A stretch of 64,000 nt of DNA from an uncultured Planctomycetales bacterium (GCA_964373175.1 CAYJTP010000002.1:40402-104401); one strand, 5' to 3'; positions 42,001 through 63,253 are shown, counted from the first letter of the stretch. Notes: generated by a model from the sequence alone, not told the origin. Numbers and translations: made by a program.

Positions 42001-45000
42001 AAGCGGTGAAAGACACCATCCGGACTTGGCATGTCCAAGAGATCGCCCGATTGATCACGGCGTTCGATGAACCCAAGCGGCCGATGGTGCTGGTGATCGG
42101 TGGAGACGAGCTGTTGACCAGCCGATCAATCGCTGAGCACAAGCCACTGGTGATGCACCAACCAGTCCTTCAGCAGGTCATCCAACGGATGAAGAAAGGC
42201 GATACCATCCTGGTGGGCGGCTACGCGGCCAGCGGCTTCCAGACGGCGCTCGATCTTGGTACGCCGCAGTCCGATGAGTCGGTGGACGAATTCCTGGTGC
42301 GCAAAGAGCGCGAGCTTGCCCCTGGGTTTACTACAAGCGACCTCGGCAAGCTCAACCAGGCTCAATTTGAAGAGGCGAAGGTCGCCTATCGGTTGCTTGA
42401 TCTCGCCCGGCAGCGAGGGGTCGAGGTACGGGTGGCGCAGATCAGCTACACCGAACCAGGGACAGGGCGCTTCAAGTATCATCCGGACCTGCTGGTGGAC
42501 GATCAAGAGCGCTTCATTCACAAGCTCCGGCATGCAAAGACCATCCTCTGGATCGGCCAAGCATTGGGTCTCACAGAGACCGCGACCACGACTGAGATCA
42601 AGCGCATCGCAATGGAACAGGTTGAGAAACGACAGACCGCCATCTACGTCAACGAGAATCCTGACCACCTCGAGGCGGCCCTGCACTTCCTGAACAGCGG
42701 CGGGTCGTTGCCTGAACGCTACCAGGCCCTTGAGCCAGAGGTGCTCAAACTCCTCCGCGGAGAGCCTGCTCAAACCAGAGAAGCGCCTGACACTTCAAAG
42801 ATAGCTCAACTGGCGGTGCTTGGACAGGTTCCAGCCGTTGATCATGCCAGTCGGGATACCTCACAACTAGCGGAATGGGTGCGCAAACATCGAGTTGGCC
42901 GTGTGACCATCAACCCGAACTGGGTTCGAGACGCCATTGTCAGTGGGTCCTACGACGACCTGATCCAGGATGGTCTTGCCAAGGACTATTCGGCACAACA
43001 GATCTACCGGGAAATCGTGGCTAATCTCGTGACTCGTACAGCTAATGTCCTCAGAGAACAGCATAAGGAAAGTCAGGGCCGGGATGGCATGGTGAGCATC
43101 CAGGTGAGCCCTGAAGCCTATCGTTCGGCTGAAGAGATCCTTGAAGAAGCACGGTGGATTTATGAACACACGCCAGAAAATGTGGACATCAAAATCCCTG
43201 CGACCCCCGAAGGCCTCAAGGCCATTGAGCAGGCTGTGGCTGAAGGCATTCGGGTGAATGTGACAAATCTGTTTCCAGATGTGACCTATGACACTGACCG
43301 TGATAAATTCCACGCCGAACAGTATGAGGCTGTGGTTGAAGCGTACCTGAAAGGGTTGGAGCGGTACGTTGAGCGCGTCCGGAGCCAGATGGCTCCTAAG
43401 CAGTTGCAAAGGCATCTTAGCCGGTTAGGTTCAGTCATCAGTATTTGGCTTCGCATGATTGACGACCTTGCGGATTCTCATCTTCCCGTCGAGTGGCGTG
43501 GAAAATTGAGCATCGCACAGGCGAAGGTGCTCTATGAACTTCATGAACGGCTCTTTCAGTCGGAGCGATTTCAACGCCTGGCGGTCCTCGGCGCAAGACC
43601 ACCCCGTCTCTTATGGGCCAATACCCGTGTCAAACCCGAGGTTCATTTTGTCCGATGGCACGGCCAAACTGGCTTTGATGAAACCCGAGAGTACTTCCAC
43701 TACATCGAACCACTCATCGGTCCAGACACGTTATCGACCATGCTTCCTGACACCCTTGAGCGCTACGCTCTCAACGGAGATCCGCAACCGCGGCTACGGC
43801 TTGGGGTAAATGAGGCAAAGCGCGCTGTCAAGGCCATTGCGCAACTCCTAGAGCGTGCAGGGACGAGTGCGCGAGAGATCCATGAGCGTGCAGTGCAAGA
43901 GAGCTTGGTAGCCTTTGGACATGCCGCGCAGCAATCTGTTGAGTATATTCAGCTCTATGAGTTAAGGCCAGCCATCAAAGATGTGATACTCGCGATTGAT
44001 CATCGGCTCAGTGACCAGGGTGGATTGGTGGCGATTGATGGGCCGTCTGCGGGCAGGAAAAACACGTTGGCGAAAGGGGTAGAAGGTCAGTATGAGAAAA
44101 CCCATCCTGGCCGCAGGATCGTTGTGCTAGACCTCGATGAATTGTATGTGTCGCGAGAGCGAAGACAAGCCATTATCAAACGGCTCATAGGAGACCAACT
44201 GACAGAAGCGGAGGAACAGCTGCTCACGGAGCACGACCGTGCGACGATGGAGCCAGGCAAAGACTACCTGCACGAAGAAGAGGTCGTTTGGAAGAACGAT
44301 ACGATCCTCGAGGTGTTGCAGCGGATTCACGCCTTTCTCAAGGCGGGCCATCCAGAAAACGCGGAGCTTTCTTTCAACATTGATGCGTACGATCACAGCA
44401 TTCGACAAACTCACCCGAAGCCTTACACGATCAAACGCGGGGACATCGTGTTGGTCATAGGGAAGTTCGCCAGCCGCGAGCCGCTTGCCCAGTTGTATGA
44501 TCTCAAGGTTCGAGTGCTTGATCATCTCAAGAGCGCCAGGCAGCGCTATGAAGCTCGAGAACGGCAACGGAGAACGTCCGAGGAAGCCGATCGCCTGATG
44601 AAGTTTTACGACTCAGCCCTTGTGCCGAGCTGGGAAGCCTACGACACACGGACCCGGAACCTCATTGACCTCGTTGTTGATCTCGGTAACGCCACAACCG
44701 CCTGGAAAGGCCCGACCAGTCCTCGAGCGCCTCCTGGAGCCCAGTCTTTCGCGAGCCTCTTGAGTGTCCTCGCAAACCCGCTCGTCTTTCTCACCACCTC
44801 ACTGGCGCTGGTCGTGGCGGCATGCACAAAGCCGACGGTGAAAGACTCCCTGGCGAGCCGAGCGCCTCTGGTCCTGACGGCTAGCGACTCTGCTCGCATC
44901 GCGCAGTTGATTGGGCAGTCCCGCGCCACCTATCTGTCTAGAGATTTCAAGGCCGCCTTGAAATTGTTCGAGCAATTGCAATTGCTCGCGCCGAATTTTG

Positions 45001-48000
45001 ACATGTACTACAACACGGGCCTGACCAGATTTCTGCTCGGCCAGCTTGAGCAGGACTCAGGTCGAGCCAAGCCCGCCCACGAGTACTACGAACGCTCCAT
45101 CGCGGATTTTGACACCTCGATTGCCCTCAAGCCAACCTTGGAAGCGTATTACCATCGGGGCCTGGCGTTCTACAACGTGCAGCAGGAAGAGAACGCCATT
45201 GAGGATTTCAAGCAGGCCCTGGCCTTTGAGGAGGCCTCCAGGCTTCCTCCGGGATCGCAGGCAGAGCTCCTGCGTGCCTTAAGCGCCGCGTACGTGGCTC
45301 ATCGCGACTACCAGGCGGCCCTCCTCTACAGCCACCAGTCGCTTGCCCTCAAGCCAACGTTGGAGGGTTATTACTACCGAGGGCTGGCGTTCTACGGTCT
45401 TGGCCAAGAAAGCGATGCACGGGCTGACGAGGCTGTCGATTCGGTTGAGCAAGACGCGGCGTTGCAGGAGGCCTATCAGTCTTATCTGGATGCTGCCGTG
45501 GATCTTGAGGAGGCGCTGGCCTCGGAGGAATTCTCGTTGTTAAGCCCGCGCACGCAAGCTGAGCTGCATCGAGCCCTTGGCGCGACCTCTTTTGCGCTTG
45601 CCGAGTATGGTGAGGCGATCAAGCAGTATGACGAAGCGCTTCGTCTTGATCCTGACAACGCTGAGCTGTACATCAGACGTGCTGAGAGTTATGCCCTTTC
45701 CGGATCGACGTGGTTTGCCATCCAGGATTTCAAGGAAGCGATTAAGCGAGGCGCAGAGCAAGCGGTCAAGGCCTCCCTCGCTAAACTCCGCAGGCTCGGG
45801 ATCGAGATTATCATCCCGATGATCCTCGCGCCGGTGGTCGGCCTCCTCGCCTGGGCGGCGCACCTGTTTGGGCTTGGTGGCGCGGAGCAGACGGCAGGGT
45901 TTGTGCTCAGCATGGCGATACCGATGAGCGTGCCAATCGCGAACGCGATTCGCGCAAGGTGGATCGATGTGCTTCCCGATCATGTGCGTTTTGGCAAGGG
46001 ACCGATTATTGACCAAGCCATTCGCGCGGCGTTCGCTCATGCGATCCAAAATCCTGAGCAAGATGCCGAAGGCGCCATTGTTGACACTGCACAAGCGCTC
46101 GCGGAGGACTTATTACCACCAGGCGCACAGGACAGCTACACCGCGCTCATCCAGCGCGCGCAACACCTGACAAGCGATCCAAGGAAGCTCGTGGTTCTCC
46201 TGCGACAGCCGCTTCTTGAGGCACAAGAGCTTAAGCTCCAGTTCACAAATGGCCGCGATCAGTCCATGCGCTTTTTTTATCGCTTTGATCTCAAAGAGCT
46301 AATTGGACAGCGGAGGAATGGAGATCGGCATCCCCAGAAGAAGCCGATGGGACCAGCAGCCACGGCCAAAGCGGAGCAAATCGCCGTCGCGCTCTGGGAA
46401 CTTCGCGATGAGGTCAAAGCTGGTTTGCTGGATTTTCCACGGTTTAGAAAGTACTTGGTCGTGCATGAACTGCGCAAACGCAAAGGCCAGCAGTTTCTCT
46501 CTCCTTGGACATTAAGTGTTTATCCCCGGCACTCCCAAGCCGTCCAAGAGGCCTTACGAGAGCTGAAGCGTGCGATCGAGGAGCGCCAGGAGCAAAAACG
46601 CCAAGCGGGGCAACTCGTCTACGACTACGTCCACGCGGAGCGGGCTGCCAAAGTGATTGATGAACAGCTCACGCAACTTGAGCAACAACTCGATCGTGGA
46701 GAAAAGCCACGCTACAAAGTCTCAGAGGAAACATTCTCCGGACACATCGATCTCTCCCGCCAAACGCTGGCCAAGCACCTCACGTGGAATCCGGTGTTTC
46801 GTACAAGGTTTGAGTCTTTGCAAGAGAAGACAAAGGATTTCCGCGATTACCTCTCGAAGGTCCTTCAGCGTCTCGCTTCGGAATATCCCGGCCGCTGGTG
46901 GACAGTCAAGAAAATCCGCCAACACGCCCAGATGACTGAGGTCGCTCACGATAAGACGTATCATGATTTGGAGCAGCTTGCCAAAGATCCGTCCTCAGGT
47001 GTGAAAAAGGAACCCAGAGCGAGCCGCAGTCCCTATAAACCCAATCGCTATCGCTTCGTCTCTCAAGGCACAGTCGTCCTTGCGATCCTCCTGCCGCTCC
47101 TCGGCGGCCTGGCCTATCCTCTGCACCTGATTGCGGGGGCAGGCGATGCGTTGCTCAGTGCGGTGTTGCTTGGTGGATTTGCTGGTTTTCTCGGTGTGAC
47201 TGTCTCACTCAAGCAACTGTCGGCGATTTTGCGAGACACCCTGAGAGAAGGATCAGACAAGCTCGTCACCCTCTACTGGTTAGCGAAAACTGAACTGGCC
47301 CTGGGCCATCTCGAGGAAGCCTATACCCGGTCCGCCTCCGGATTGGCCCAGGCCGTTGTCGCCCAGCAAACACTCAAGCTCACTGGTCGGGAACGCGAGG
47401 GTGAGCTGGCAGAGCTGGACAGACAGATCGCTGATCTGGTCGATCTCCACGCCAAGGTCCTCTTGAAACGAAGACACCACGACGATGTGGATCGCGCGAT
47501 CGCCATCTTATCCCAGGCGGTGAAGGACCACCCCGAGGCCTTCTTCCTCCGGATCACCCTCGCGAAGGCCTACGAAACCAAGACCAACACCCCAGGTCTC
47601 CACGAGAGCGACCGCCGCTTTGCCTTGAAGCAAGCGGAGGCGACAATCCGCAAGGCCGTTAAGGACCTCTCGACGTCCCCACAGTATTCCAGGATCGCTG
47701 AATCTTACGCGAACCTCCCCGCCTGGCAGGACCGAATTGATGAGGCGATTCACGTGCTGAGTGCCGGTGGGCGCCATGTGAAACGGCAGTTTCGAGGAAA
47801 TCGGTTGATCCAGCAATTGTTCTCTCACCTCGTCAGGCTTCGGGATGGCACACGGCGTTCGGGTAAGGCCGAGACAATCCTCAAGCTTGCCGTCGGATTC
47901 CTCAGCCTCAGACTCCTTGATTTGACCGTGCAAGCCCTCAGCCACGGTGCCTCTAAGAACATGGTATCTGATACCATTTCCCAGGCGACTCTCTTCAGGC

Positions 48001-51000
48001 TTGACACCCCTGACATCAACCTGACGCTTCTTGGGCTTCTCCTCACCGGGGCCGTGGTCCTCTGGTCGCTCTATCATTGGCTTGCCACGCGCTTCCATGC
48101 GCCGCCAGAAGCCGCTCCATTGAGTCGCTGGAGCGTCCCCGCCTCTGATCGATTTGCCCTCCTTAGTGGTGTGGTCAGCTTGCCGATGATGGCCACATTG
48201 CTGCCCTCCAAAGATCCTGACAGCAAGTTGGCTCGGGATGCAGAGGATTTACGTGAACAAGGCTGGACGGCTGAGCTCGTTCGGAGCGATCTGACCACGC
48301 AGCAGCTTCAGCACACCATGGACGCCATCTTGGATGGATTAGTGTTTTCCCCACATGATCGGCCGCTCGGCCTTCCGGCCTGGCTTGGTGAACAAGGGAT
48401 CGCCGACTCCTCGAGCCGCTTACCTCGAGCATGGGTCGAGATGGTCATTGGCGAGTTGCTCTGGAATTGGCAGAGGCAGCCTGCCAGTAGTCCGTCCTCA
48501 GGCGTCGCCAGACCTCTCTTGGTCGCCTACCGACGAGGCCACATCGTGAGCGAAGAGACCATCGAGCTCATCGCGCGAAACCTTGTGGAGGAGATCCCGA
48601 ACATCCGCGAGGCGGTGAGGCCTACTGAGGCTCAGCCTGTGACGGAACGCGGCCAATGGCTTCAGCGCATGATCGCCATCGTGGTGGGGATGTTGGATGG
48701 GGAGGTGGTCATTCGATCGCATGGCAAAAAGTCTCACTTCTTCCTGCCGCAAGGAGGCGTGGGCAGTTACACCCAGCTGCTCGAGGCGAGCACGTCCTTT
48801 GACTCCTATGTGACCAAGGGCACCTCCATCTCCATCAGAATCCCGACCGCCGCGTGGTCGGCAGATGCATCGGGGCGAGCGCTCAGACAGGGCAAGCGGC
48901 TCATGAGGAAGCGACGGTTTGCCGAGGCTGCCGCGGTCTTTGCCAACGTCCTGAACCGAACGCCAACGCACCTGGGTGCACTCCACTGGTTGGCGAAAGC
49001 CGAACTCATGCAAGGGCATCTTATAGCGGCTTTGGCGCGGCCGCTGTACGGAATCGCCCAGGCCATGATGAGCCGCTCGACCCTGCACACAGAAGATCAT
49101 GTGCACGAGCTTGCGAAGCTGGATGCCCAGACTGCTGATCTGGTGGATACCTACGCTCGTGTGCTCATGGCGCGACGGCATCCTGGCGAGGTGGATCGCG
49201 CTATCGCCGTCTTAACGGCGGCGGTCCAGGAGCAGCCGCACGCGTTCTTCCTGCGGATTACCCTGGCCAAGGCCTACGAAGCCAAAGCCGTCATCCCCGA
49301 CCTCCATGAAAACGAGCGACGCTTTGCCTTGAAGCAAGCCGTCGCCATCACCCAGCAAGCGCTTGCGGACTTCTCCGCGCATCCGAAAGTCCGCCTGATC
49401 GCAGCGTACGACGCCGGGCTGTTGTCCCGCCAGGGCCGCATCGAGGAGGCCATCCGCGTGCTCAGCGATGATGAGGGACGCCACGTGAAGCGGGAGTTCC
49501 ACGAGGATCAAGTCATCCGTCGGCTCTTGGACAAACTGGCGGCAAGCCGCTTGGCTGTTGGGGTGACACCGTGGGCGCTCTCGCAAGCCCCGGCGGAGCT
49601 CTTCTGGTCGGTGGTAGCACTCGGGGCGATCGGGCGCGTGGTGTTCTCGCTGCGGCGGTGGCTCGCGGAACGCTTCCACCGCGCACCGCAACCCGATACC
49701 GAGGCGCAGAAGTTGCTTGAGGAGGCGCGATCACGACATCAGAAGAGAGACTTTGCCGGCGCCGCCCACGGGTATCGGGAGTTTGGTCATCACCTCAAAG
49801 TGCGGGACGGTCTGGCGAAGACGGAACTTGAACGCGGTCATGACTTGGATGCGATCGCGCTCGCCAGAGAGACCCTCGCGTTGGAGCAGCGACTTCTCGA
49901 GACGGAGCACTATCTCGAGCGGGTGTTAGCGGCTGAGCAGATGCCGTTCACCCTGGAGGTCTTGATCGATGCGCTCATCGCGCAGAGGAACCATGCCGAA
50001 GCGCTCACGGTCGCTTCCAACGGCATTCGCGATTTTCCGGACAACCCGCGTCTTCGCGTGAAGCAGGTGAAGGTGTACTACAGTGCCAACGACTACGAGC
50101 TGGGAATCGCCATCGCGCGCGAGGCCCTTCAAGACCCCACGTTCGAGGAGAATCCGCATCTTCACGAAGTGCTCGCGGCTGGGCTGCGGCACCTCAAGCG
50201 GGCGAAGGAAGCCAAGCACGTCATGAGTTTTGATGGCCGCACCCTCAAACCGTGGCTGCGTGGCCATAAATCCGTCTATCCCACCTTTGCTGCCATCCTG
50301 GGCGCCGATGGCCACCCGTGGGAGGGGATTGACCAGTTGATGATCAATCGGCAGGTCATCAAGCGCGAGCTTCGCGACCACCCGGCTGTCTACCCGACCC
50401 TGGCAACCCTGTGGGGTCGCGTGGGTCAGTTTGACACGGGGATTGCGCTGCTGAGCCCGGATGGTGGCCGCACAGTCCAACCAAAACTCAGCGACCATCC
50501 GGCTTCGTGGACCGCACTCGTGGAGTTACTGGAGCATAGCGGGCGGCACGCTGACGCCCTGACCCTTGCGCGCGAAGCCAAGAAGAAGTTTCCAAGAAAT
50601 CCCGTTGTCCGTCGCACGCTGCAGCACATCGAGGCCTCCTTTTACCGCCCGGGTGGTCGGGGAAGACCAGACCTCCCGATCATCAGCGCCTGGCTGGTTG
50701 TCCTAGGGCTTGGATGGTTCCTGGACCGATTCCTGGATGTGGGGACCTCATTCTCAGAAGCTGCGGTGTTTGGAGATCTCTTCTGGCCAGCGCTGGTTCT
50801 CCTCGGGGTAGTCGCAGCGGCGTACCAGCATCGAGCGCTCAGTCCTCGAACCGCTCGTCGGCTCCGTGAGGCCATCGCCTATTTCAATCAGCAAATCAGA
50901 AACAAAGTCTTACGACTAAGACAACTCACCGAAGCGGATGTTGCCGGAAAGGCCGATGTGAGCCATACGACCATCTATTGGGCCCTCAAGATCACTGACC

Positions 51001-54000
51001 CGTCGCAACAAGACATCAAGCGAGGGCTCATCCGACTGTTGAAGTCGGAACGCGCGACCATACCTCCATCCTGGCCGGGATCCCCTGAGACCCGCAGGGA
51101 GCAACTGGTCGGGCAGATCCTGAGCGCCATCCAGGATCTCACGCGACTTGCCGGTGAAGGAAAGATTCAGCGTTACTCGACGGCTGAACTCGTGGCAGCT
51201 CATGTCAGGAAGATGACCGGTGATCAGACAATTTCCGACCATGAAGTCCGGCAATTGATCGCGCATCGCAAGAACCTCCAAGATGCCATGGGGGTCTTGC
51301 GGAAGAGCACGGAGTCCTTCCACTTCCAGCCAAAGCCGCGTCCGAAGAAGACACCCGGATCGAATCCGCTCAGGGTATTCGCCGCCCCGCTGCTCGTGGC
51401 CATCGGCCTGTGGGTCGGTGGGCTCGAAGGGCACTTGCTGGCCGGGCTGGGCGTTGTGCTCAGCGTGATCGGGTTTGGCGGGCTGCTGCTGGCAATGCGA
51501 CCGGTCAGACAAGAAACAGAATCAGAACTCAAGCCAGGCGAGATTGCGGGAGGCGTCCAGCAGGAGCTTGGCGCGGTCCAAGCATCCAGCCCATCCAAGA
51601 ATCAAGGGGACCTGGTCAGTCTTGACCAACATCGCCCACAGCGGCAGGGGTGGCGAGGTATGCTTGGCATCCAGCAGTTTTCCAGTCACCTTCGCCAAGA
51701 CCGCGTCAATCTCGGCGTCTTTCCCTGGGACGAGGCCACGCAGCGGCAGTTCGCCCAGTCGTTCAGCACGCAACGCGGGCCACAACGAGATGGGGATCAC
51801 CGAGTAGGGAGCGCCCGTATCGATGATGGCCAGATGGTCATCACTCCACCCAACAGACTGTCTGAACTGGACTCGACCCAAGAGTCGAGACAGGAAGAGT
51901 CGACGACGACGGCGGCTGGCCTCGAGGTCCCGCACGCGCTGGACCTCAAGGGCGACGCGCATATACGTGGATTCCGGCCTCGAGGAACAAATGCGGGATA
52001 TGCGGCCAGTCAAGCTGCTGGCGAGCTTTCGCGAGCACCCGGATTAGATGCGGACCAACAGCCAACACTCGCCGGTGCGCAAAGGCGACCCATTGATTCG
52101 GGTAGCGTGTGGCCAATTCGGCATAGTGCGCAAAGGCCCAATCGTACTCCCGCTGAAGAGCCTCTGGAAAGAGCGCTGTTTGAACCGACATCAGTTTCAC
52201 CGACCTCCACCTCGACTATAACCGACGATGAAGAGGCTGTCAAGCCAGACCGCTTCTCCGACCTTATCGGTGGGCTCGAAGGGCACTTGCTGGCAGGGCT
52301 GGGGTTTGTGCTGAGCCTCGTCGGGTTTGGCGGACTGCTGGCGATGCGGAAGATTGGCGGAAAGGAACAGCTAACAGGCAAGGCAAGAAGCGCGAATAGG
52401 CAGAAGACAAGCCGTCAAGGAATGCCGAGTTTTTCTTCCACAACTTTCAAGCGGGCGTCGAAAGTCTTCATCTCGGATCTGATCGCACGGATTTCAACAA
52501 GGATCAGGTCGGCGTCTTTCCGAAGGTTGCCGACGTCTTTCGACAAATTATCCACCTTTGTGCGAAGGTCAACGAGCCCTTCAGCGACGAGGCGGATCTC
52601 ATGGCGAAGCGACTCGATGAGCGCGCCGACTTCGGTCACCGTGAAGGCGTCTTTGGAAGGCCGTTTGGATGGAGGCATGAACGCCATTCTACGCAGGACA
52701 GGAGCACCAGTCAAGGAACATCGGGATGACTCGGTTGCGCCAGGTGGCCTCCTGACCCCGATGGGGGGATTCGTGCTCATAGGGATCGGGCTCCTGGCCA
52801 AGCATCTGATGGGGCTTGCGCTCTTCGGGACGGTGGCGGAAGTGGTGGGCGTTGGGCTGACCGCGCTGTGGGCAGGTTGGAATACGACTCTTCATTCAGC
52901 GTCTCAGGTACTGTCGTGGAGGGTGAGAGCGCTACCGAAAGATCTCATAGCCATCACTGCGCAGCACGAGGACTTTTCCACGCAACCACCGCTCAGGTCT
53001 GATCTTCAACAAGTTCCTGACAGCCTGGGTGATCGTTTCAGCCATGGGTGGGTGGATGCGGATCACGACAATTCCGGACAGCTTCGAGGGCAGGAAATTC
53101 AGGAAGTCCCGGTCACGCGTGAACAGGATCGCGCCTTCCCGTTCGGCAAGCGCAGCGATGGTCGCGTCGGTCGCACGGGGGGACGGACGGATGACGTGAT
53201 GCCCCACCCGGCGCAGGAAGGCTTCCGTCTGTCCAGGGATATGTTCGTCAAGCAGCACACGCACAGCGAGCTACGCCTTGAAGGCCACGAATTCCCGGTG
53301 CTTGAATTGCTCAGCGGCGTACTGCAGGGCGGCGCGAATGTGCTGCGGGGTCAGCTGGGGAAAATATTTCTTGGACGTGATCTCGGTGCTCGAAACCCCG
53401 GCTCCAAGCAGCTCAAGGACATCCGAAACCAGGATGCGAGTCCGCCCAAAGCAGGGTTGGCCATGACAGATGGCTGGGTCCACGTCGATCAGCTTCTCAA
53501 GGGAGTTTTTCATCGCCACCTTCACACTCCTCCTAAGAAGGATAGCATCCTCGCTCCTCGTCGTCAAGGCACGTCTTCTGGAGTACTCAACGTGGGGTTC
53601 AGCGCAGAGACCCTTGCCGGGCGGTGGCCGGAGGGTTCGCCCATCTGGATCGCGCCGGTGGTGGGGCTGCTCGGGTGGGAGTTCCTCGTGGCGGGGTTGA
53701 AGATGGGCGGCCTAGAGGGGGTGGCGCTCGCGGGCTTTGGATTGGCACTTGGCCTCTTCGGGTTTGGCGGGCTGCTGCTGGCGACGCAACGCGGTGGGAG
53801 AGTAAAGGGGAGGGAAGCACGGCTTAGAAGCTACCGGGTTCCCAAAGAGGTGGCCGAGCGTTATGTCACTCCGGAGATCCTGACACTCTTCGAAGTGGCT
53901 GAACAACTTGGACTCAAGATCAAAGCAACCGGCGGGACCGCGCGGGATTTTGCCGTGTCTGTCATGACACAACACCCGCTTCGACTCCCTCGCATCACCA

Positions 54001-57000
54001 ATTTTGATGTGGCGATCCCACTGGCTCCCCATCAGAAGCCCTCAGAATTGTTCAACGAATCAGCCTACCAGAGGTTTGCGCAAGCCTTCGAACAGGCCCT
54101 TCGAGCCCGTGGCGTGCTCAAGCCAAACCAAAAGATGCCTGAGGTGGATTTCATGCCAGGCGTGTATGTGGAAGGAGCCGGCTACATTTACCAGATTAAC
54201 ATGAACATCCGACCCACAAAGGAGCGGCCTGAGATTGGCGAGGCATTTTCGATCAGCAAACTGGCGGTCAAGAAAGAAGGCGACGGGTTTGTGATTGAAG
54301 ATCACGTGGGCGCTATGGCCGACATCAAGGCTAAGCGCCTTCGGATTATCGCCACACCCGGACGGTTACTCACCGAAGGGATGCTGGGGAAGATGTTGGG
54401 TCGATGGGCGGATTACCGGAAGCTGGGATTTGACTTTGACCGGCCATCGAGGCAGCTGATCCAGCAGTCGGTGAACGCGCTCCGGCATACCACACCAGCA
54501 GACCAAAGCACCTTTGTGAGCTTGCTCCTCGACAACAGCCAAACGCAGCAGGATCTTCTCTTCGTGATTGACCAGTATCGATTAGACGAGGTCTTGGGGG
54601 TACGGCGAGCCTCCCTGGCAAGACGATTCAAACGGCATGAGCGCGCGTCGACGGCTTCCTCCGCGGCTCCTGATCCAGTCAAAGCCTTCGTCACACAGTA
54701 CCTGCAAGCCAACTACGGCCAGTTCAACCTGTGGGCCAACACCGAGGCCGTTGTGGATGCGGTGGTGAACCGCCTGTATCCGTCGCGGGATCCAGCAGCG
54801 ATTGAGCAAGCGCGAGAGCAGTCGGGGATTGGCGTTGCGGGAAGTGACTTTACGAGGCGCTATGATGACTATCAACACGATCAGAAACTGGAGCTGACCT
54901 ATGAGCTCATTCGAGAATTTCTTACAGGCGGAGTGGTCGTGGATGTGGGGGCTGGGAAGAATCTGTTGGCGCGGAAGCTGGCTGAAGAAATCCCAGGGAT
55001 CAAGGTGATCGGGACGGATGTCTTGGATTGGCATGAGGAATCGTCCGATCCGAGAGTCGAGTATCGAAAACAACTCACCCCTGAGCGAGTCCCTGTTGAG
55101 GATGAGAGCGCCGACGTCGTGATACTCCAAAGCGTCCTCCACCACATCACGGATGAGCATCTTGACAGTCTCTTGAAGGAGGTCCACCGAATCCTGAAGC
55201 CGGGTGGGAAGGTGCTCGTGTTAGAGAACACCTTCCCGGAGACACCCGAGGTGCTCCAGACCGTGAGGGACCAGGAAGGCTTGTCGGAGTTGAGCAAAGC
55301 CTTCCTGAGCTTAAACCCAGCGCAACAGCAAGCCTTCTTCGAATTTATGGATTGGTATGGCAACGTCTTTGTGAAGCAGCAGTCTGACATGCCCTTGTCC
55401 TTCAATTACAAGTCGATCGAAGCCTGGAAAGCACTGTTTGACCAGCATGGATTGGTGACGCGCACGGATCGGTTCATCGGCTTTACCCCGGGCCGCTTCC
55501 ACTGGCTGGCCACCGGCCTCTTCGTGTTTGAAAAAGTGTCCAGCGAGCCTCCTATCTCATCCATCCTGAAGCGCCATCCGTACTTGAATGAAACGCAACT
55601 GAAGCGTTTCGCGCAAGGCGAAGCCGGGTTTGCGGTCACCCGGAGACTGAGATGGACTTTGGAGAAGCTGGATCAGTTTCTGACCGGTTTGGAGCAGGTG
55701 AGCGGGATCCCCTTGGACAAGGCAGTACAACTCGTTGTGGAACCCGCTGAGATGTATCTGATCAAGCAGGTTCGCGATGAGCGGGCAGGCCAATATCTGA
55801 TCAACCTTGGCAATTCCATGTATCCTCCAGATGTTGTCATCCAAGCGGCTGGGTACGTAGGGACTCATGAAGGCCATCACTACCTTGACGAGCTTAATAT
55901 GGTTGACGCTTCTGGTCTTGCAGAAATGGGGGGTTCTGGTGGCACGACTCGCCGAGGCTCAATCTTGGAGCAGTTTGATCGGATGGTAAGCGACGCGGCT
56001 CGAATGAATCCGATGATGCGTGGGCTAGCAGGTCGTCCAGATCTATTGTGGATGGTGGAAGAGCTCAGCGTTGATAGTGATACGGCTAACACACTCGGTG
56101 CTCGCGTCGTCAAGAACTATCTCCCCCTTGCGGAAGCTCGATTGGCTTATCAGGAACGTCAAGCAGAGAGTCCTCGCGGAGTTGTTCCTGGTCTTGCGGA
56201 GCTCGTCCGGTATGAAACCGTCGCACGGGAATATGCATGGATCGAAGGGGTCGATGGGGCATCCCGCGAACGTCTCAAGCGCGTGGAGGAGGGGTACGCC
56301 AAGTTAGCCAAGAAGGCCAAAGACTACTCGGAGGCCAAATACAAGTTCTTCCTCGGTGTGTTCACAAGCATCTACCGGATGACGAGTTTGCTCAAACCAC
56401 GTGGTGGGCGGTGGCCGAAGCGGCAGCCGTGGTATGACCGCCTGGAAGCGCGCTACGGGTGGTTCGTGGGACAGGTGCTGGCGCCAGCGCTCAGAGAGTC
56501 CGGATTCTTTGTCGGTGGCGGGAGCTTGCTACTCAGTTGGGCCTTTGGGATTCCGCTTGAGCTGAGGCCTCCAACCGTGGCACTGCTAGCTGGATTCCAA
56601 ATCCTGTGGCACCTCCGCCATCTACCGGGTGCCGAAGGCAAGACCTTGGCTCAGAAACTCGCCGCGGCGTTCTCCGCTGAGAAACTCCTCATCACCGGCC
56701 TGACGGTCGCGCTTCCCAGCCTCCTGCTGCTAGATCCCAGCAGCCCATTCCATCCGATCGGCGTCGGCTTCGTGGCACTCATCCTCGGCGTTGCGTCCTT
56801 ACCTCACGCCTTCATCAACCTCGTCACACCTATCCAAGATGGTCGTGTGGTAGGTGTCCGCGACGCGGGATCTGATACCGTCGGCAGGCAGGCGGATGGG
56901 TCTGGTCGCACTTCGCAGGACTCACCGTTGACCATCGTGGAGATGGTGTACGCTGACCTAACCAACACAGGAGGCTTGGAAAGCTACTTGCGGGAGCTTC

Positions 57001-60000
57001 ATCGCGAGCTCCTCACCCACCCAGGGATTCGAATCCATGCGCTGTATCCGGTGCAGGCCGCGCCAAGGACGTTTGAGGAACGCGCTGACAATGGGAGCAC
57101 GCTCGTTCATCACCAGTTTGTGAGACAACGTCCTTGGGTGAAGGTTTCGTGGCGCTCACCGTGGGGCTCCCTTCAGCAGAGTGCGGAGATCTTCCGCAAC
57201 CTCCGTCAGATCATTCGGCAAGAGCAGGTTGGCGTCCTGCATCTCCATACGCCGTTCTATTTCCCCGCGCATCTGGCGTTTTGGTTGGCGGGCGTGTGGT
57301 ATCGCATCCCCCGTGTGGTGACCTCGCACCAGACACACGCAGGGGGCTCGAGATGGTTCTTGCGCACCATCCACCAGCTTGGTGCCAAGGTGCTTCCTCT
57401 TGGCGCGGCGGAAGTCACCGGGGTGAGCGACGCGGCGGCCCGCAGCCTGAAGCGCAAGGCCTCTATCATCGGCAGCGGGATTGACACGCACTTCTTCACC
57501 CCGCAACACGGCCGGGGCGATGCGTTTCGGCAGCGTGAGGGGCTCTCAGCAGAGGTGCCACTGATCGTTTATCCGGCTCGGATCGATCCTGAAAAGGGCC
57601 AGCGGGATCTTTTGGATCTGGCCGAGGCGCTTCGGGCCAACGGCCTCAAGGCTCAGGTCGTCATGATGGGACCAGTCGCTGATCCCTCCTACGTTCAGCT
57701 GCTCAGCGACGACATCATCGCGCGGGACCTGTCAGAGATCGTCCACATCTTGCCCGCTGGGACTCCTGAAGAGGTGCGCGACGGCTACGCGGCTGCCACC
57801 GCGGTGGTGTTTCCTACCTATTCGGAGGCGTTGGGCCTTGTGGCGTTGGAAGCCAGCGCGATGGAAAAACCGGTTGTGGCCTACGCGACAGAAGGCGCGC
57901 GGGAAGCGGTGAAGGATGGCGAGACCGGCTACCTGGTCCCGACCGGCGATGTCGAGGCGCTTAGCCGTCACGTGATTCAACTCTTACAGGATGAGCCACT
58001 TCGTCAACAGGTGGGTCGTGCGGGTCGGGCTTTTGTGGAAGCCCGCTATTCGCTTGAGCAGTTAGCCAATCGACATCTTGCGCTGTACCGACGTGTGGCC
58101 GGCCGCGACGCGGACGCGGTATCTGATACCGTTACTGAACTGACGTCGCAAGCGATTCGCGCGGGTCTTGAGCGGCTCATTCGGGAAGGGAAGGGACTAC
58201 TTGTTGCCAAACCTCAGAAGGGCCCAATTACACAGTGCTACCTGGACTGGGGAGGGACGTTGAGCAATCTGACGCCGGAAGAACGGCGCGCGGCGCTTGA
58301 GCTGTTTCGCGCGCGCGGGATTGAGGTCAACATTCTCACCACGGCCAGCCCCGAGGCGATCGCCAGGCAGCTTGAAGCGGAAGGCAACCTGCCCTTCTTG
58401 CGCTCCATCATTCACGCCATGGGCAGCTCCTCAGGGAAGGTCCACGTCGCCCGCTATCAGGACTCAACCGGCCAAGACACTCCCATCGTCCTGGTCCACT
58501 CGCCTACGACCAAGGCCGGCTACTTGAATTCGCTCCCTGGACAGGGCCGCGTCCTGTTTGTCGATGATCAGGCGACGCATTTTTACATCACCTCAGGACA
58601 GGTCATCCGCGTCGGCGTGATCGGCAAGGGCGTCACGAGGTTAAATGACCTGCTCGGCGAGGACACGGAGTTGGCGGAGTATTACCTGGCGTCCCTCAGC
58701 GACCGTTCCTCCCTTGATGAGTTGCTCACCGCGGTATCTGATGCCGTATTGAGACCAGAGACCAGCCCGCCCCCCCGGCCCGACGCCGGCGACAGCCGGG
58801 GCGGGCGGCGGATGCTTTCGGCGGGCCGGGGAGACCAGCCCGCCCCGGCGGATGCTTTCGGCGGGCCGGGGAGACCAGAGACTCGAGTGGGCATGACTGA
58901 CAACGAGGTCATGAACGGATCGGTGAGTTACTCCGACAATCGCTTGCACAGGGCTCTTGAGCGGCGGGCCGACAAGCTCGCGCGGCTCTTTGGCAATCTC
59001 GAGTACCAGCTCATCGAAGACCTCAACCCAATCACGATGGATCATCGGCTGCCGCGCGAGTTTGCGCGGGTGAAGCTGCCGCTCTTGGCGATGCTCGTGG
59101 CCGACCACCTCATACCGAGCCACCGGACGTCACCGAAAGAGACGCTGCGTGGAGAACTGCGCGAATTCATGATGCCCGATGGGGTGACGCTGCGCGGCCA
59201 GTGGTTCAAAGTTGAAGGAGATGGCCCTGCCCCCGTGGTCGTGTTCATCCCGCCCTGGGGGATGTCGAGCAGCCAGTACGAGTCGCTCGTCGACACCTAT
59301 CGCCAAGAGGCCAACGTCCATGTGCTGCTGCTCAACCTGCGCGGGCAGGGCTTGAGTGAGGGGGAACTCACGACGCATGGCGCGGAGGACGTCGATGACG
59401 TGCAGCGCGTGCTGCAGATGCTGCGCGCCAGCCAGGAAGTCAGCACCCAGCCGATCCTCCTCCATGGCACGTCGCTTGGCGCGCTCGTCTCTCTGCGGCT
59501 TAAGACCCTGTTTCCTGAGCTCATCCAAGGCGTCTTGGCTGAATCGTGCCCGCCCATCCAGGCGCACGCCATTCAGCGGTTCTTGCAAACACAACTGCAA
59601 GACCGCTACGGCAAGGTCTTGCAACAGCTCTATCCCGAGGTCGCACGCCAGGATCCTGATTTCTCGAACTTGGCGAGCGAGACCGTACCGCTCCTTGAGC
59701 GGGTGTTAAGCCATCGCCTCGGGCGCTCCATTCACCTCATGCGGCCCATCGATGACCTCAAGACGGCGCAGGGGCCGATCACCTTCCTGTACGGTCGCGG
59801 TGATCACGTGATCCCGGCGAATGAGCAGTTGGACATAGCTCGTGCGGTGAAAGAGCGCCTCGATGCTGGTGAGGGCATCCAACTCTATCGGCTCGACGGC
59901 GGCCACCTGGCGATGAGCAACGATCCGCAGTACGCCACGGTGATCTCATCCGTTGTCCGTGAGGTCATGGTTCAGGCTTCGTCCAATGTCTTCGAGCAGA

Positions 60001-63000
60001 GGAGCTGGGGAAGGTTGCGCAGCGTGAGGAGGACCTTGCTCGGGGCCGGCATGATCCTCACAGGGATCGGCAAGTTGATGGGACACCGACCGCTTCTCGC
60101 AGTCGGGTTATCGCTCGCTAGTCTTGCCGTCAGTCTGCTCGCGTTGAAGGTCTTCCCGCAGACCTACCGGAGTATTGAACAAGCGGTCACGCGGATCAGT
60201 CAGGCAAAGCCTCTGCCGACCATTGTGCTCATGGGCAGTTGGCTCATCGCGCTGGTGTCGTTGATGGCCGTGTGGAGCGTGGGGCTGTTGATTGGAGGGC
60301 GGATTCTTGAATGGGTGACTGCCGGCTTCTCTCTGCAGGGAATCGACACGTCGTTCTTGAGTCCGGTGCCGTGGGTCGCGTTGCTTGCGGGCGGGGTGTT
60401 CCTGGTTAAGGCGACCCTCCTGTTTGGCTCAGACAATGGGGTGCCATTCGAGCGCTCATCCCAGGTGCGCCCAGCCTTGAGGACGAACCTACTCTTCTAC
60501 GGAACGCTCCTGTTGGCCAATCTCCTGATGGCGTTGGGGTTGTCGTCCCATATCGGCACGCTGATCTTCCTCTATCAAAAACCCATGCCGTTACACCACG
60601 GGGATGGGGTCATCGCGCTGGCTGGCATGGCGGCGCTGTGGGGGATCGTGACTGGCAGAACCGCCTCGGTGCTGTGGCGAGAGGTGGGCCAGCGGCTTTC
60701 GGCGTGGTGGGCGCGCCACCGCCACTTCTTCGTGCCGTTTGGCCTGATGGCGACGATGAACGGGCAGACGACTCCGTCCTACTACGAGGCGGTGCAGCGA
60801 GTCTTGCCACCTCACATGGCTGGTCGTCGTAAGGTAGCCCACTATATCGTGGAGCGGTTTGGGAGCCGATGGGACGAAGCGCTCTCCATGATGGGTGGCC
60901 ATCTCCTTAACCGCACCCGTTGGCCCTTCATCGACCGAGCGCTCAAGGCTGGGCTTTCGATCACGGCTATTGCAGATTTGCTGCATTACTCCCACACCGT
61001 GGATGAGCAGAAGACGGGGGTCAAGACATTGCTAACGATAGAAGATTTCCCTCCCGAGTTTCAGGAGCTCGTCCTGACCCATAGTCAAAGCCGCCGAGGA
61101 TTTCATCGCGGGTCGATCAATTTACTGTGGACGCTCTATGAGGTTCTGAGACCTACTGGAAGTCCTGCGCCATCGGCCATCGAGTTTCCCGCATGGCTTA
61201 AGTTTGGATCGAGTGCGTCCCAGGCTGAGCGAGCGCTTCTCGAAACTCTTGAACGACGCGGCACGGCGGTGACTGATGAAGAACTCGTGCAAACGGCACG
61301 GAAGATTTTTGAGCTTCAAAAAGCCCAACGTCGTCGCTTGATTCCTCTCTATGCGTCTGACGGTGGTCCCTTGAGTGAACAAGACGTTCCAGTCCAGTTC
61401 CTCTCACCCGACTCCCCCCTCAAGTTTACCGTCCGGCAACGTGTGTTCTACGAGTTTCCTTCGCAGCCAACGAGCCATCCATCGCTTGATGCCTGGTTGA
61501 CCGATGAGTCACTGTATCAGTCGTTACGGCCGTTTCTCGCCAATCAACCTGAGGTATCATTCCCGCTGCTGTTGGCGAGTGTTGCCTTTGAGCCTGAGCG
61601 CGCCGATCGCATCGACACTGTTGAAGAGCGGTTCCTGCAAGTGTGGTTGCATCTGAGCAACCAGCTCCCAACAACTGTTCGGCAGCGGTTGCAAGGTCTC
61701 GAATCAACCATGGAGCAGGCATTTCGCCTCTTTGCTGCCCAACAGGGATTTGTACGTGTCAGAGCACCAACTGGAAGTCGATGGTTCAGCCACACCGCTC
61801 ATCTGTTGCACCGCAACACGATTGAGCGGTTGAACAGCCTGTACCGCGACGCAGGGTATCGGTTGGTGTTTGAGGATAGCCAGTTCTGGTGGGAACGAAA
61901 CCTCGCGACGGTGCCGAAGACAAACGGCTCTGTTTCACCCTTTGGAGTTGGCTTGGGCCAGCTCTTCACCCCTGAGGTCTGGCGGGATCTTGCCCAGCGG
62001 CTTTCGGCGTGGTGGGCGCGCGGGGTCTTAGGCGTGAACGGGAAGGTTAATATTCACGAGAAAAAGGGTACGAAAAAGGGTACCGGTTCTCATTTCTCGA
62101 CGCCGGACACGACCCCCATTACCTTCGGAGCCGATGCGGGTTTTGGGGAGCTGCTGAGGCGGCTTGGACAGGTGCCTCGAGCCTTCCAACAGTTGTTGCG
62201 CCGCGCCGTGCTGCCCATCACCACGCTCCAACCCGGCCCCTCGGTACCTGGTACCGGAGCCACAAGACCCAAGGCTCAAGGGAACGGATCAATCCTGCGC
62301 AGGCTCAACGAGCGGTTGCCGAGGAGCTACTGGTTCAATGGGGTGGCGATCGGGACCTTAGGCTTAGCCGCCTATTGGCTCGGGCTGATTCCGCACAGCG
62401 GGGAAAACTGGTTGCAAGTCCTCGCCAAAACTGTCGGCGGCTTCGTGGTCTTCTGGACGGTATCTGATACGCTCGCCAAGCGCAGCACCAGCGAGCCCAT
62501 CACCGGCAAGGGGCTGCGCGGTGCCGCCAGCGCCGGGTTGATTAACGGCCTGTACACGCTGGGCTTCTTTGCGCTCATCGCGCTGATCCCTGAGCCGATC
62601 GGTGCGCCGGCGCGTGTGTTCTTGGTGACGTTCCTCTTGATTGCGTCACGAAATTGGATTTATTCGAAGCTGTTCCACAGCCACGCCAAGGAGGCGCAGG
62701 ATGCGTGGCTAGTCAACCGGAGAAAAGAGGCCTACTGGTTTAGCCGTCCCGCCTCCATTCTGAAGAATACGATCATCCAGGCGCTCCTGCCGCTTCCGGT
62801 GCGGGGGCCGGTCGAGGCGATCATGACCCAGTGGTTCCAGCAGTACTACGCCTGGGCGTTCCATGTGCGCCGTCCATCACTGATCAGCCGGCCGCAGCGG
62901 GTTTCGGCGATCCAGCGGATGGTCTTTCCGTGGCATCGGGGTCCGGCGCTGATGGTCTACGGCCTGGTCGCGCCGGTGGTAAACGCTTGGGGAGGTGTGC

Positions 63001-63065: not shown

Positions 63066-63114
63066 AGACATGAGGCACAGGAGACCAGACACAACAAATG
63101 GGTAGTAAAAAGAG

Positions 63115-63167
63115 GGGTCAGACCCTGTGCGGGAATTTTGTCAGTTTTCGTGCGAAGGGTCTGACCC
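63115..63167. terminator. Palindromic hairpin element (copy 2) 50 nt after the giant-ORF stop. It is a possible terminator or REP-like element, but it has no U-tract.
   Basis: The arms gggtcagaccc (63115-63125) and gggtctgaccc (63157-63167) form 11 Watson-Crick base pairs, plus one more pair t26:a56. The loop is 29-31 nt. The stem is the same as in the in-ORF element at 36428-36480, and the loops are related (about 68% identity) in inverted orientation. The downstream sequence gagcacgctcac is not T-rich. Confidence 0.4.
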
Positions 63168-63253
63168 TGAGCACGCTCACGGCAGGGGAACAGGGAAAGA
63201 GGGGACTGTCAAGAGTCTTCCAGGGCTCTCTTAGTACAAGATAAAAAAAGCAC

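Follow-up and report, generated by a model that had tools for sequence, protein, structure and literature searches.

Promoter-bearing antisense cassettes, including a predicted toxin–antitoxin pair, inside a stop-free 63-kb open reading frame of an uncultured Planctomycetales bacterium

A 64,000-nucleotide (nt) stretch of DNA from an uncultured Planctomycetales bacterium (GCA_964373175.1, CAYJTP010000002.1:40402–104401; hereafter the window) contains a giant plus-strand open reading frame (ORF) whose segment at 51.5–53.6 kb is shown here to be an island of three minus-strand gene cassettes lying within the 63-kb frame. Two of the three cassettes are toxin–antitoxin-like pairs, one of them a DUF433–DUF5615 pair of putative antitoxin and toxin, and the giant frame runs through all five genes of the island without a stop codon. 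The interpretation that we consider very probable is that these are autonomous addiction-type cassettes adapted to antisense life inside giant ORFs, which the host would translate as spacer. With less assurance, although we still favor it, we propose that specialised clades of such toxin–antitoxin (TA)-like cassettes with their own promoters, of DUF433–PIN, DUF5678–retropepsin and coiled-coil type, represent an unrecognised class of ORF-resident elements, which would lie antisense in giant genes and in inteins of Omnitrophota, Elusimicrobia, Planctomycetota and other groups, would be recoded to leave the host frame open, and may stabilise giant genes against deletion or tune them by convergent transcription. 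A sequence-only reading of the window had suggested nested bidirectional coding with the cargo serving as a host linker; cargo identity, codon usage, substitutions, stop avoidance, an independent contig and recurrence elsewhere all agree with it.

The island consists, on the minus strand, of a G2–G1 cassette, the single gene G3 and a G5–G4 cassette (Table 1). None of the five genes is truncated, and each has a start codon, a stop codon and the residues invariant in its family. The DUF5678, DUF433 and DUF5615 families first assigned to the cargo were recovered above threshold with profile hidden Markov models (HMMs), together with the 6-nt gap that separates G5 from G4 (53265–53270). Bit scores exceed the cut-offs for G5 as DUF433 (66.7 versus 23.6), G4 as DUF5615 (51 versus 23.8) and G4 as PIN (24.8 versus 23.6). 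G5 retains every residue that is invariant in the DUF433 family, and has two candidate starts, a GTG at 53519 preceded 9 nt upstream by AGGAGG and an ATG at 53513. The antitoxin-first, co-oriented layout is displayed by most related loci too. Searches of the cargo against NCBIfam gave weak VapC/PIN hints for G4 and nothing else, and exact look-ups of the G4 and G5 sequences returned no record. The G5–G4 pair is a member of a known family of predicted TA modules.

For G1, the proposed retropepsin-like identity stands at the level of family and fold. G1 belongs over its full length to a family of 227 representatives, and the D48-T49-G50 triad is invariant or nearly so across 57 aligned members. 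Its structural model has a predicted local distance difference test score (pLDDT) of 95.4 and matches, with a Foldseek probability of 1.0, feline immunodeficiency virus (FIV) protease (template modelling score 0.58/0.73), human immunodeficiency virus (HIV)-1 protease and Rickettsia APRc. At the level of HMMs the identity was not recovered, as G1 remains below the Pfam gathering scores of RVP (16.5 versus 20.7 bits, expectation value (E) 0.01) and Asp_protease_2 (14.1 versus 24.3). RVP is matched weakly (E ≤ 0.01) by 11 of the 57 aligned relatives, and a PDB sequence search with G1 gave nothing meaningful. Because the Pfam scores are sub-threshold in G1 and in most of its relatives, the protein appears to belong to a distant, unnamed retropepsin-fold family. 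The coiled-coil gene of about 90 amino acids (aa) was likewise upheld as an intact ORF, G3, but the 90-aa product matched no family above threshold. A homologue occupies the same relative position in L085 (BLASTP E 1e-11), one of the related loci, designated here by L numbers.

Over 737 codons of the island, all of them antisense or non-genic DNA, the giant frame has no stop, against an expectation of about 12. By comparison, the remaining five frames of the window contain 305–921 stops each, and their longest open run is 328 codons. When the synonymous codons of the five cargo genes were resampled with host codon usage, 6.7 plus-frame stops were expected within the genes, with a probability of finding none (P0) of 0.001. 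Shuffling of the 557 nt of non-genic DNA that lies outside the direct repeats R1–R3 gave 5.55 expected stops (P0 = 0.003). The combined probability is ~3e-6, or ~2.5e-4 with a conservative codon pool. As noted at the outset, the cargo genes sit in three codon registers beneath a plus frame that is stop-free throughout: G1, G4 and G5 share the antisense register that is codon-aligned with the giant frame, and of the two remaining registers one is used by G2 and one by G3. Translated in the plus frame, the island gives a hydrophilic sequence, rich in R/S/T/Q/G and nearly devoid of Tyr and Cys, in agreement with the R/S/T/Q-rich composition reported earlier, and the segment 51495–53705 has no Pfam match even at E ≤ 10. 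Sense coding on both sides of the island is supported by plus-strand codon usage, but the helix-turn-helix (HTH) and nucleotidyltransferase labels that had been attached to these flanks found no Pfam counterpart at E ≤ 0.01.

Each unit of the island is preceded by a predicted promoter. A scan for the sigma70-like consensus over 50.5–54.8 kb found four sites against an expectation of 1.0 ± 0.8, and three of these are on the minus strand, one directly upstream of each unit. The hexamers of the G2 and G5 promoters are identical ahead of the homologous cassettes in L085 and L094; the G3-equivalent promoter in L085 reads TTGACA-17-TAGAGT, and a similar promoter site is present in L002. Between the window and L085/L094, the cassette DNA is ~70% identical, a similarity that does not reach beyond the −35 box or the stop codon of G1. 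In the plus frame, the G2 promoter encodes the conserved peptide '(S)TI(A/T)...(A/P)VK', which is found in the same place in L087–L089 and illustrates how a regulatory element can be accommodated within an ORF.

In a codon-usage log-likelihood scan, a minus frame scores at least as well as the plus frame nowhere in the 63-kb ORF but at 51.6–53.6 kb, and the winning minus frame switches with the register of each cargo gene. Between the DUF433 genes of the window and L002, 12 differences fall on first, 11 on second and 45 on third cargo codon positions, and amino-acid identity is 75% in the cargo frame versus 39% in the host frame. The same cargo-third-position pattern emerges when nested copies are compared with free-standing ones, and identity across the cargo amounts to 25–45% in the host frame versus 44–75% in the cargo frame. 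On the question of which strand is under purifying selection, raised by the sequence-only reading, substitutions accumulate at cargo third positions. At the level of codon substitution, the cargo genes are shown to be under purifying selection in their own frames, with the giant frame only kept stop-free.

Table 1. Features of the window and of intein-embedded relatives (coordinates in nt; positions are those of the window unless a locus is named).
Feature	Position	Strand	Remarks
Giant ORF	21..63065	+	21,014 aa; single stop-free frame
G1, retropepsin-fold aspartic protease, 146 aa	51522..51962	-	D-T-G; 17-nt overlap with G2 end
G2, DUF5678, 81 aa	51946..52191	-	E 7e-6, above Pfam cut-off; first gene of G2–G1 cassette
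G3, coiled-coil protein, 87–90 aa	52415..52687	-	likely start is the second ATG (52678), beside promoter
G4, DUF5615/PIN-like, 110 aa, putative toxin	52932..53264	-	E 1.5e-13 plus PIN match
G5, DUF433 (COG2442), 80–82 aa, putative antitoxin	53271..53519	-	E 1.6e-18
Predicted promoter of G2	52215..52243	-	TTGACA-17-TATAGT, 11/12
Predicted promoter of G3	52686..52714	-	TTGACT-17-TAGAAT, 10/12
Predicted promoter of G5	53539..53567	-	TTGACG-17-TATCCT, extended -10 TG
R1	51415..51488	+	direct repeat; giant-frame peptide GGLEGHLLAGLGVVLSVIGFGGLLLA
R2	52267..52340	+	direct repeat, 89% identical to R1
R3	53704..53777	+	direct repeat, 66% identical to R1 overall; last 38 nt 89%
'R2b' hydrophobic Gly-rich segment	52743..52880	+ (giant frame)	between the G3 and G5–G4 cassettes
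Intein with antisense cargo	L017 835-3375; L021 5011-7437; L038 677-2791; L055 3468-5363	minus of each locus	Intein_splicing

The arrangement is supported as recurring at about 30 other loci by similarity searches with the cargo. An alignment of DUF433 was scanned against one genome per species and returned 80 loci, to which exact look-ups added three for a total of 83; a metagenome scan for the G1 family, with a four-sequence alignment, returned 23. The DUF433 gene lies inside a 4–12 kb opposite-strand stop-free frame in 18 of the 83 loci, and the G1 relative is nested in 11 of the 23, proportions that are not population frequencies, the loci having been chosen by similarity to the window cargo. 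The stop-free frame often spans the whole fetched DUF433 locus. Runs of N are absent from the seven wholly open loci, and among the 18 only L007 and L014 contain any (~100 N each). L008, with a guanine-plus-cytosine (GC) content of 0.36, has no stop in one frame over 12,228 nt versus 209–437 in the others. L074 (GC 0.37) is likewise open from end to end (12.2 kb); the open stretch of L009 (GC 0.38) is 10.6 kb long and does not fill the locus, the same frame having 33 stops elsewhere. A DUF5615 partner is present in most nested DUF433 loci. A start and a stop codon are present in each of the 30 cargo ORFs found in the 18 nested loci, the DUF5615 partner in L078 being only 63 aa long, and resampling with host codon usage predicts 82.5 host-frame stops in these ORFs, with none observed. 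Sense domains beside the cargo in the host frames include HEAT (E 6e-38), HATPase_c, NUDIX, Sigma70_r4 and Beta-Casp. The hosts are metagenome-assembled genomes (MAGs) labelled Omnitrophota, Elusimicrobia and Planctomycetia/-ales, together with one Parcubacteria, one Pacearchaeota and one unclassified MAG.

Among the G1 relatives, all 11 with at least 45% identity carry the DUF5678–protease pair in an antisense frame without a stop from one contig end to the other. Such a frame measures 8–12 kb in four loci (L085, L086, L092 and L094), and seven of the 11 contigs are just 1–2.5 kb long. The 12 distant homologues are all free-standing, with 1–12 stops in the aligned frame. Both cassette types occur within one giant frame in L085, L090, L092 and L094. 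The codon-aligned register is adopted by DUF433 in 16 of the 18 nested loci and by G1 in all 11. Similarity of the host frames to that of the window is limited to the cargo, implying that the insertion sites are not orthologous. A neighbour-joining ordering of 90 DUF433 copies clusters the 24 nested ones together. Free-standing copies are interleaved with them, among others those of L003 and L004 (72% identical to that of the window), which suggests movement between the two states.

In four loci (L017, L021, L038 and L055), the Pfam family Intein_splicing (E 1e-12 to 1e-23) is split around an antisense DUF433–DUF5615 pair, and L090 probably belongs to this class as well. The intein blocks observed are C(V)xGDT..., TTxNHP... 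and ...YDIEVEGTHNFIGNGIFAHN/T. Cys1 and the HN/T junction are intact in L017 and L021. In L055 the HN/T junction is present and the N side is cut at the contig end, and L038 is without a clean C-terminal motif. No endonuclease family was found among the Pfam results for the four intein segments. The cargo lies where the endonuclease of an intein usually is, and protein splicing would remove the antisense-encoded spacer. The strongest indirect evidence that ribosomes read through the cassettes is the C-terminal splicing block, which is conserved downstream of the cargo. In the window, searches of 45021–60020 and 50421–54920 gave no Intein_splicing or Hint match.

The cargo is bracketed by the three direct repeats that had been described earlier, which were confirmed at the positions given in Table 1. 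R1 and R2 have their first 26 nt in common; for R1 and R3 it is 25 nt at the 3' end. The repeats encode, as first claimed, Gly-rich hydrophobic peptides in the giant frame, of the pattern GGLEG(H/V)(L/A)LAG(L/F)G...GFGGLL(L)A; at the DNA level, the similarity of R2b to R3 is weak (20 nt, 80%). R1 and R2 differ at 3, 0 and 5 sites at giant-frame codon positions 1, 2 and 3, and R1 and R3 at 7, 3 and 15 (25 in total). The codon changes between R1 and R3 comprise 10 synonymous and 8 conservative ones, and the peptide pattern is kept. The differences therefore follow giant-frame codon positions, as a plus-frame constraint at the protein level predicts. A profile built from the three R peptides found R in the island only and nowhere else in the 21,014-aa protein. 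The spacings R1–R2 (852 nt) and R2–R3 (1437 nt) are both divisible by three.

Direct repeats that encode hydrophobic host-frame segments also flank the cargo in L006 (68 nt, 96%), L009 (62 nt, 97%) and L014 (60 nt, 85%, three copies). The flanks are hydrophobic without repeats in L002, L074, L085 and L094, and hydrophilic in L087, L088, L091 and L093. The restriction of R to the island and the similar repeats in L006, L009 and L014 make a flank duplication tied to insertion plausible. Site-specific insertion into a repeat target, as the sequence-only reading had envisaged, was not demonstrated: the relatives occupy non-orthologous sites, the R sequence of the window is carried by none of the related cassette loci, and some relatives reside in inteins or have no hydrophobic flank. 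Other repeats were observed at related loci. L008, from a low-GC Omnitrophota MAG, has three copies of the palindromic repeat GTGACAGGCACC-N36-GGTGCCTGTCAC inside its giant ORF (5507–5555, 6479–6565 and 7661–7748), which bracket a DUF433 gene with a truncated DUF5615 partner. L005 carries two DUF433 cassettes in one giant frame (2228–2815 and 4451–4636), each preceded by a 66-nt repeat (85%) that resembles a duplicated cassette leader or promoter region. An 'RRAEVR' peptide motif recurs on both sides of the DUF5678–protease cassette in the host frame of L091 and L093.

An independent Logan contig (ERR4904392_32146, 3726 nt) corresponds to window positions 51576–55278 with 100% identity over 3703 nt, followed by Illumina adapter. 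It covers R2, R3 and all of the cargo between them, and a short-read contig of independent origin across R2 and R3 rules out a chimera at those junctions. Gene callers treat such regions inconsistently. On this contig (L001, 1–3726), G1–G3 were called on the minus strand and a plus-strand ORF was run over G4–G5. In L002 (GCA_016206685.1, 1889–11434), NCBI starts a 2663-aa gene after the cargo, and the frame is open through the cargo to the contig end. Inconsistent calls of this kind probably hide the arrangement in annotations.

Several features of the code would make such residence possible. Only in antisense orientation would a gene with a stop codon of its own leave the ORF around it untruncated, the cargo codons TAA, TAG and TGA being read on the opposite strand as TTA, CTA and TCA, that is, as Leu or Ser codons. 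In the codon-aligned register, host stops would arise only from TTA, CTA and TCA codons of the cargo, which could be avoided synonymously at no cost to the protein. With host-frame stops avoidable in this way, we infer that the host ribosome reads through the island. The host would thereby make ~660 residues of hydrophilic spacer, looped between R1, R2, R2b and R3, and the cassettes would be transcribed convergently from their own promoters. The open frame may serve a covalently continuous protein, or a coupling of translation to transcription through which the 3' 9 kb would be expressed. The non-orthologous sites in giant ORFs, together with the endonuclease positions in inteins, suggest that the cassettes behave as mobile residents of long ORFs.

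R1–R3 are probably copies of one hydrophobic-segment unit that was duplicated with cassette gain. A circle bearing a cassette and one R could have integrated at a chromosomal R by single crossover, which would yield R–cassette–R; because the R spacings are multiples of three, the reverse event would restore a single R in frame. The least certain step is that at least the DUF433–PIN pair would act as an addiction module, for which the giant gene would be a large and tolerated place to land. A possible side-effect would be that deletions in a repeat-rich, recombination-prone giant gene are penalised, and convergent transcription into the giant gene could be regulatory.

A number of points weigh against this interpretation. 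Translation of the giant frame through the island and expression of the cargo are both predictions from sequence. The TA role of DUF433–PIN pairs is a prediction, and the DUF5678–protease pair and the coiled-coil gene are without established function. If the cargo's own codon pool is used for resampling, which is conservative, the within-gene P0 is only 0.085. Chance often leaves the codon-aligned antisense frame of one small gene open where GC is high, and among the non-nested DUF433 loci this frame is open in 25 of 65, including the free-standing close relatives L003 and L004. The statistics from the window by itself therefore lean largely on the non-genic segments and on total length. The hydrophobic or repeat bracket is frequent but not obligatory among related loci. 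The Logan contig begins at 51576 and leaves the R1 junction outside independent cover. Finally, searches found no orthologue of the giant gene and hence no empty-site allele.

The island might instead be a normal cluster of genes in the intergenic space between two or more plus-strand genes, with an open frame that is untranslated and a side product of high GC. Gene callers do split such loci, as in L002 and for G1–G3 on the Logan contig, and the chance openness of aligned antisense frames in single high-GC genes would fit. The length of the open island, with its dozen or so missing stops and a run of 737 codons where the longest chance run is 328, argues against this, as does the same continuity at GC 0.36–0.38 in L008, L074 and L009, with 200–437 stops in the other frames. 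Moreover, none of the 82.5 stops expected in nested cargo is observed, intein halves flank the cargo in four loci, and R2, situated between two cassettes, keeps its peptide. We regard this explanation as extremely unlikely, and the non-translated intervening region raised by the sequence-only reading is contradicted by selection for an open frame. The other artefact that it raised, a chimeric assembly, has a practically negligible probability, as has the collapse of a repeat at the R units. Three similar 74-nt repeats are prone to mis-joins, and one of the three junctions is without independent cover; the identity of the Logan assembly of ERR4904392 over 3703 nt contradicts the idea at R2 and R3, however, and a mis-join would not keep a 63-kb frame. 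The same gene order (G3, G2, G1 and the DUF433 pair in one antisense frame) is found in the unrelated loci L085, L092 and L094. It is very unlikely, too, that the minus-strand genes are decaying, non-functional relics overgrown by the giant ORF through overprinting. Expression of the cargo is a prediction, and the truncated DUF5615 partner in L008 is what decay would look like. Yet the five window genes are full length, every one of the 30 nested cargo ORFs keeps its start and stop, nested homologues differ chiefly at third positions of the cargo codons, and promoter hexamers are conserved across loci that share only ~70% DNA identity.

Two further alternatives concern function and origin. True dual coding, in which the host-frame polypeptide across the cargo would have a sequence-specific function of its own, is improbable, if less so than the others considered here. 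The frame is kept open, and some hydrophobic host-frame stretches recur antisense to DUF5615 in L014 and L074, but the 25–45% host-frame identity is about what constraint on the cargo (44–75%) would force by itself. Nor does a translation without Pfam match at E ≤ 10, rich in R/S/T/Q/G and with almost no Tyr or Cys, suggest a functional polypeptide, and in the intein class the segment would be excised. We also think it quite unlikely that the island is an integron-like cassette array with R1–R3 as attC-like sites for a site-specific recombinase. The single orientation, the TA-like content, the own promoters and the ~75-nt imperfect direct repeats between cassettes are reminiscent of such arrays. 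R, however, has no conserved hairpin (consensus fold −2.4 kcal/mol, 8 pairs) and no inverted repeat, is missing from the related cassette loci, where similarity stops at the G1 stop codon and the −35 hexamer, and varies along host-frame codon positions. No integrase or recombinase family appeared in the Pfam searches of the window, which included no search with integrase-specific models.

The host gene of the cassettes belongs to a known kind, the giant genes of Omnitrophota type. Its product meets the description of a giant multi-enzyme protein (>10,000 aa, tiled by distinct enzyme and regulatory Pfams), with ~20 unrelated domain families along its length and hydrophobic segments between them. 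The Pfam domains include CofD, cytidylate kinase (260 bits), ROK, HAD, several methyltransferases and a response regulator, as well as acyl-CoA dehydrogenase, transaldolase, TPR, GT4/GT1 and alpha/beta hydrolase. Many segments, R1–R3 among them, are hydrophobic in a Kyte-Doolittle window, a measure of hydropathy alone. Several modules are 36–61% identical to an ORF of an Omnitrophica MAG (L002). The window contains no marker gene. A protein search with the N-terminal 900 aa found no homologue. For the module 3' of R3, a scan of genome contigs gave no match, and the sole match of a protein search was the Logan fragment of the source organism itself.

The product contains nine Cys in 21,014 aa (0.04%), of which four form two CxxC pairs (aa 7064/7067 and 8869/8872), and Cys is below 0.2% also in most of the other giant host frames fetched. 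Direct repeats elsewhere in the giant ORF are located at 38453–38521/39182–39250, 60675–60716/61980–62021, 47403–47635/49107–49339 and 37191–37934; one of these repeats is a GSGTLFFEAGSAVLVG hydrophobic head (88% over 69 nt), and tandem HTH-like modules lie at ~37.2–37.9 kb. The codon-usage scan detected no antisense coding at these other repeats. A 59-nt inverted match (83%) connects 36423–36481 (+) inside the giant ORF with 63114–63172 (−) just past its stop codon. Rfam and tRNA scans of the window gave no matches.

If the proposed interpretation is correct, conserved, promoter-bearing genes can reside wholly inside another translated gene, on its opposite strand, in a recurrent and selected arrangement across phyla rather than a one-off. 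Antisense residence with stop avoidance would then be a third way to occupy a gene and leave it unbroken, beside RNA splicing (introns) and protein splicing (inteins), and a new lifestyle for selfish modules of the toxin–antitoxin type. As gene callers split giant ORFs at such islands or swallow the cargo, the lengths of giant genes and the censuses of TA systems in candidate phyla are biased. The cassettes would allow the constraints on antisense dual coding to be studied in naturally occurring cases, and intact promoters firing into a 63-kb gene would raise questions about transcription collisions and the upkeep of giant genes.

In the literature searched (giant genes, DUF433, antisense and overlapping genes, inteins and TA systems), we found no description of the antisense-cassette arrangement, but parts of it resemble known systems. 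With inteins that carry homing endonucleases, the cassettes share the condition of a selfish element inside a host ORF whose product is not destroyed. An intein is part of the host polypeptide, whereas the cargo is encoded on the other strand and outside the functional host polypeptide, and the island of the window has no known means of removing the spacer. TA cassettes with their own promoters stabilise superintegrons, the cassette arrays of chromosomal integrons. The TA cassettes of such integrons correspond to the island in having two-gene, TA-like cassettes in a row, their own promoters and repeats between them, and plausibly in their role, the penalising of loss of the surrounding DNA. 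The window cassettes differ in lying inside an ORF that would be translated and in being recoded to keep it open, and R does not have the structure of attC.

Multi-enzyme, membrane-anchored giant proteins have been reported for Omnitrophota (bioRxiv 10.1101/2023.11.21.568195; 10.64898/2026.06.07.730766), and the host ORF fits class 1 of the giant proteins in the second report. The likeness comprises a length of >20,000 aa, many distinct Pfam domains, among them methyltransferase, HAD, GT1, response regulator, HATPase and TPR, and many hydrophobic segments. Antisense, nested or opposite-strand genes are unmentioned in both reports. The DUF433(COG2442)–PIN pairs were predicted to be type II TA systems by Makarova et al. 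(2009, PMC2701414). In these as in G5–G4, a DUF433 gene of 80 aa comes first and a PIN-like gene follows within a few nt. The described pairs are free-standing, in contrast to the subset of the window type, which lies antisense inside giant ORFs.

Embedded antisense overlapping genes have also been described, as candidates in E. coli (bioRxiv 10.1101/2020.11.18.388249) and in a review (PMC7457138). As in the window, a complete ORF lies on the opposite strand of a longer mother ORF, and both are open. The window does not fit the overprinting type, in which the embedded frame is the novel one; its embedded genes belong to old, widespread families and the host frame is without conservation. The embedded ORFs of E. 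coli are short, young, without family and overprinted on an old gene, whereas those of the window are old, conserved, selected and promoter-bearing, lie within a host frame that is unconstrained, and recur across phyla at differing sites.

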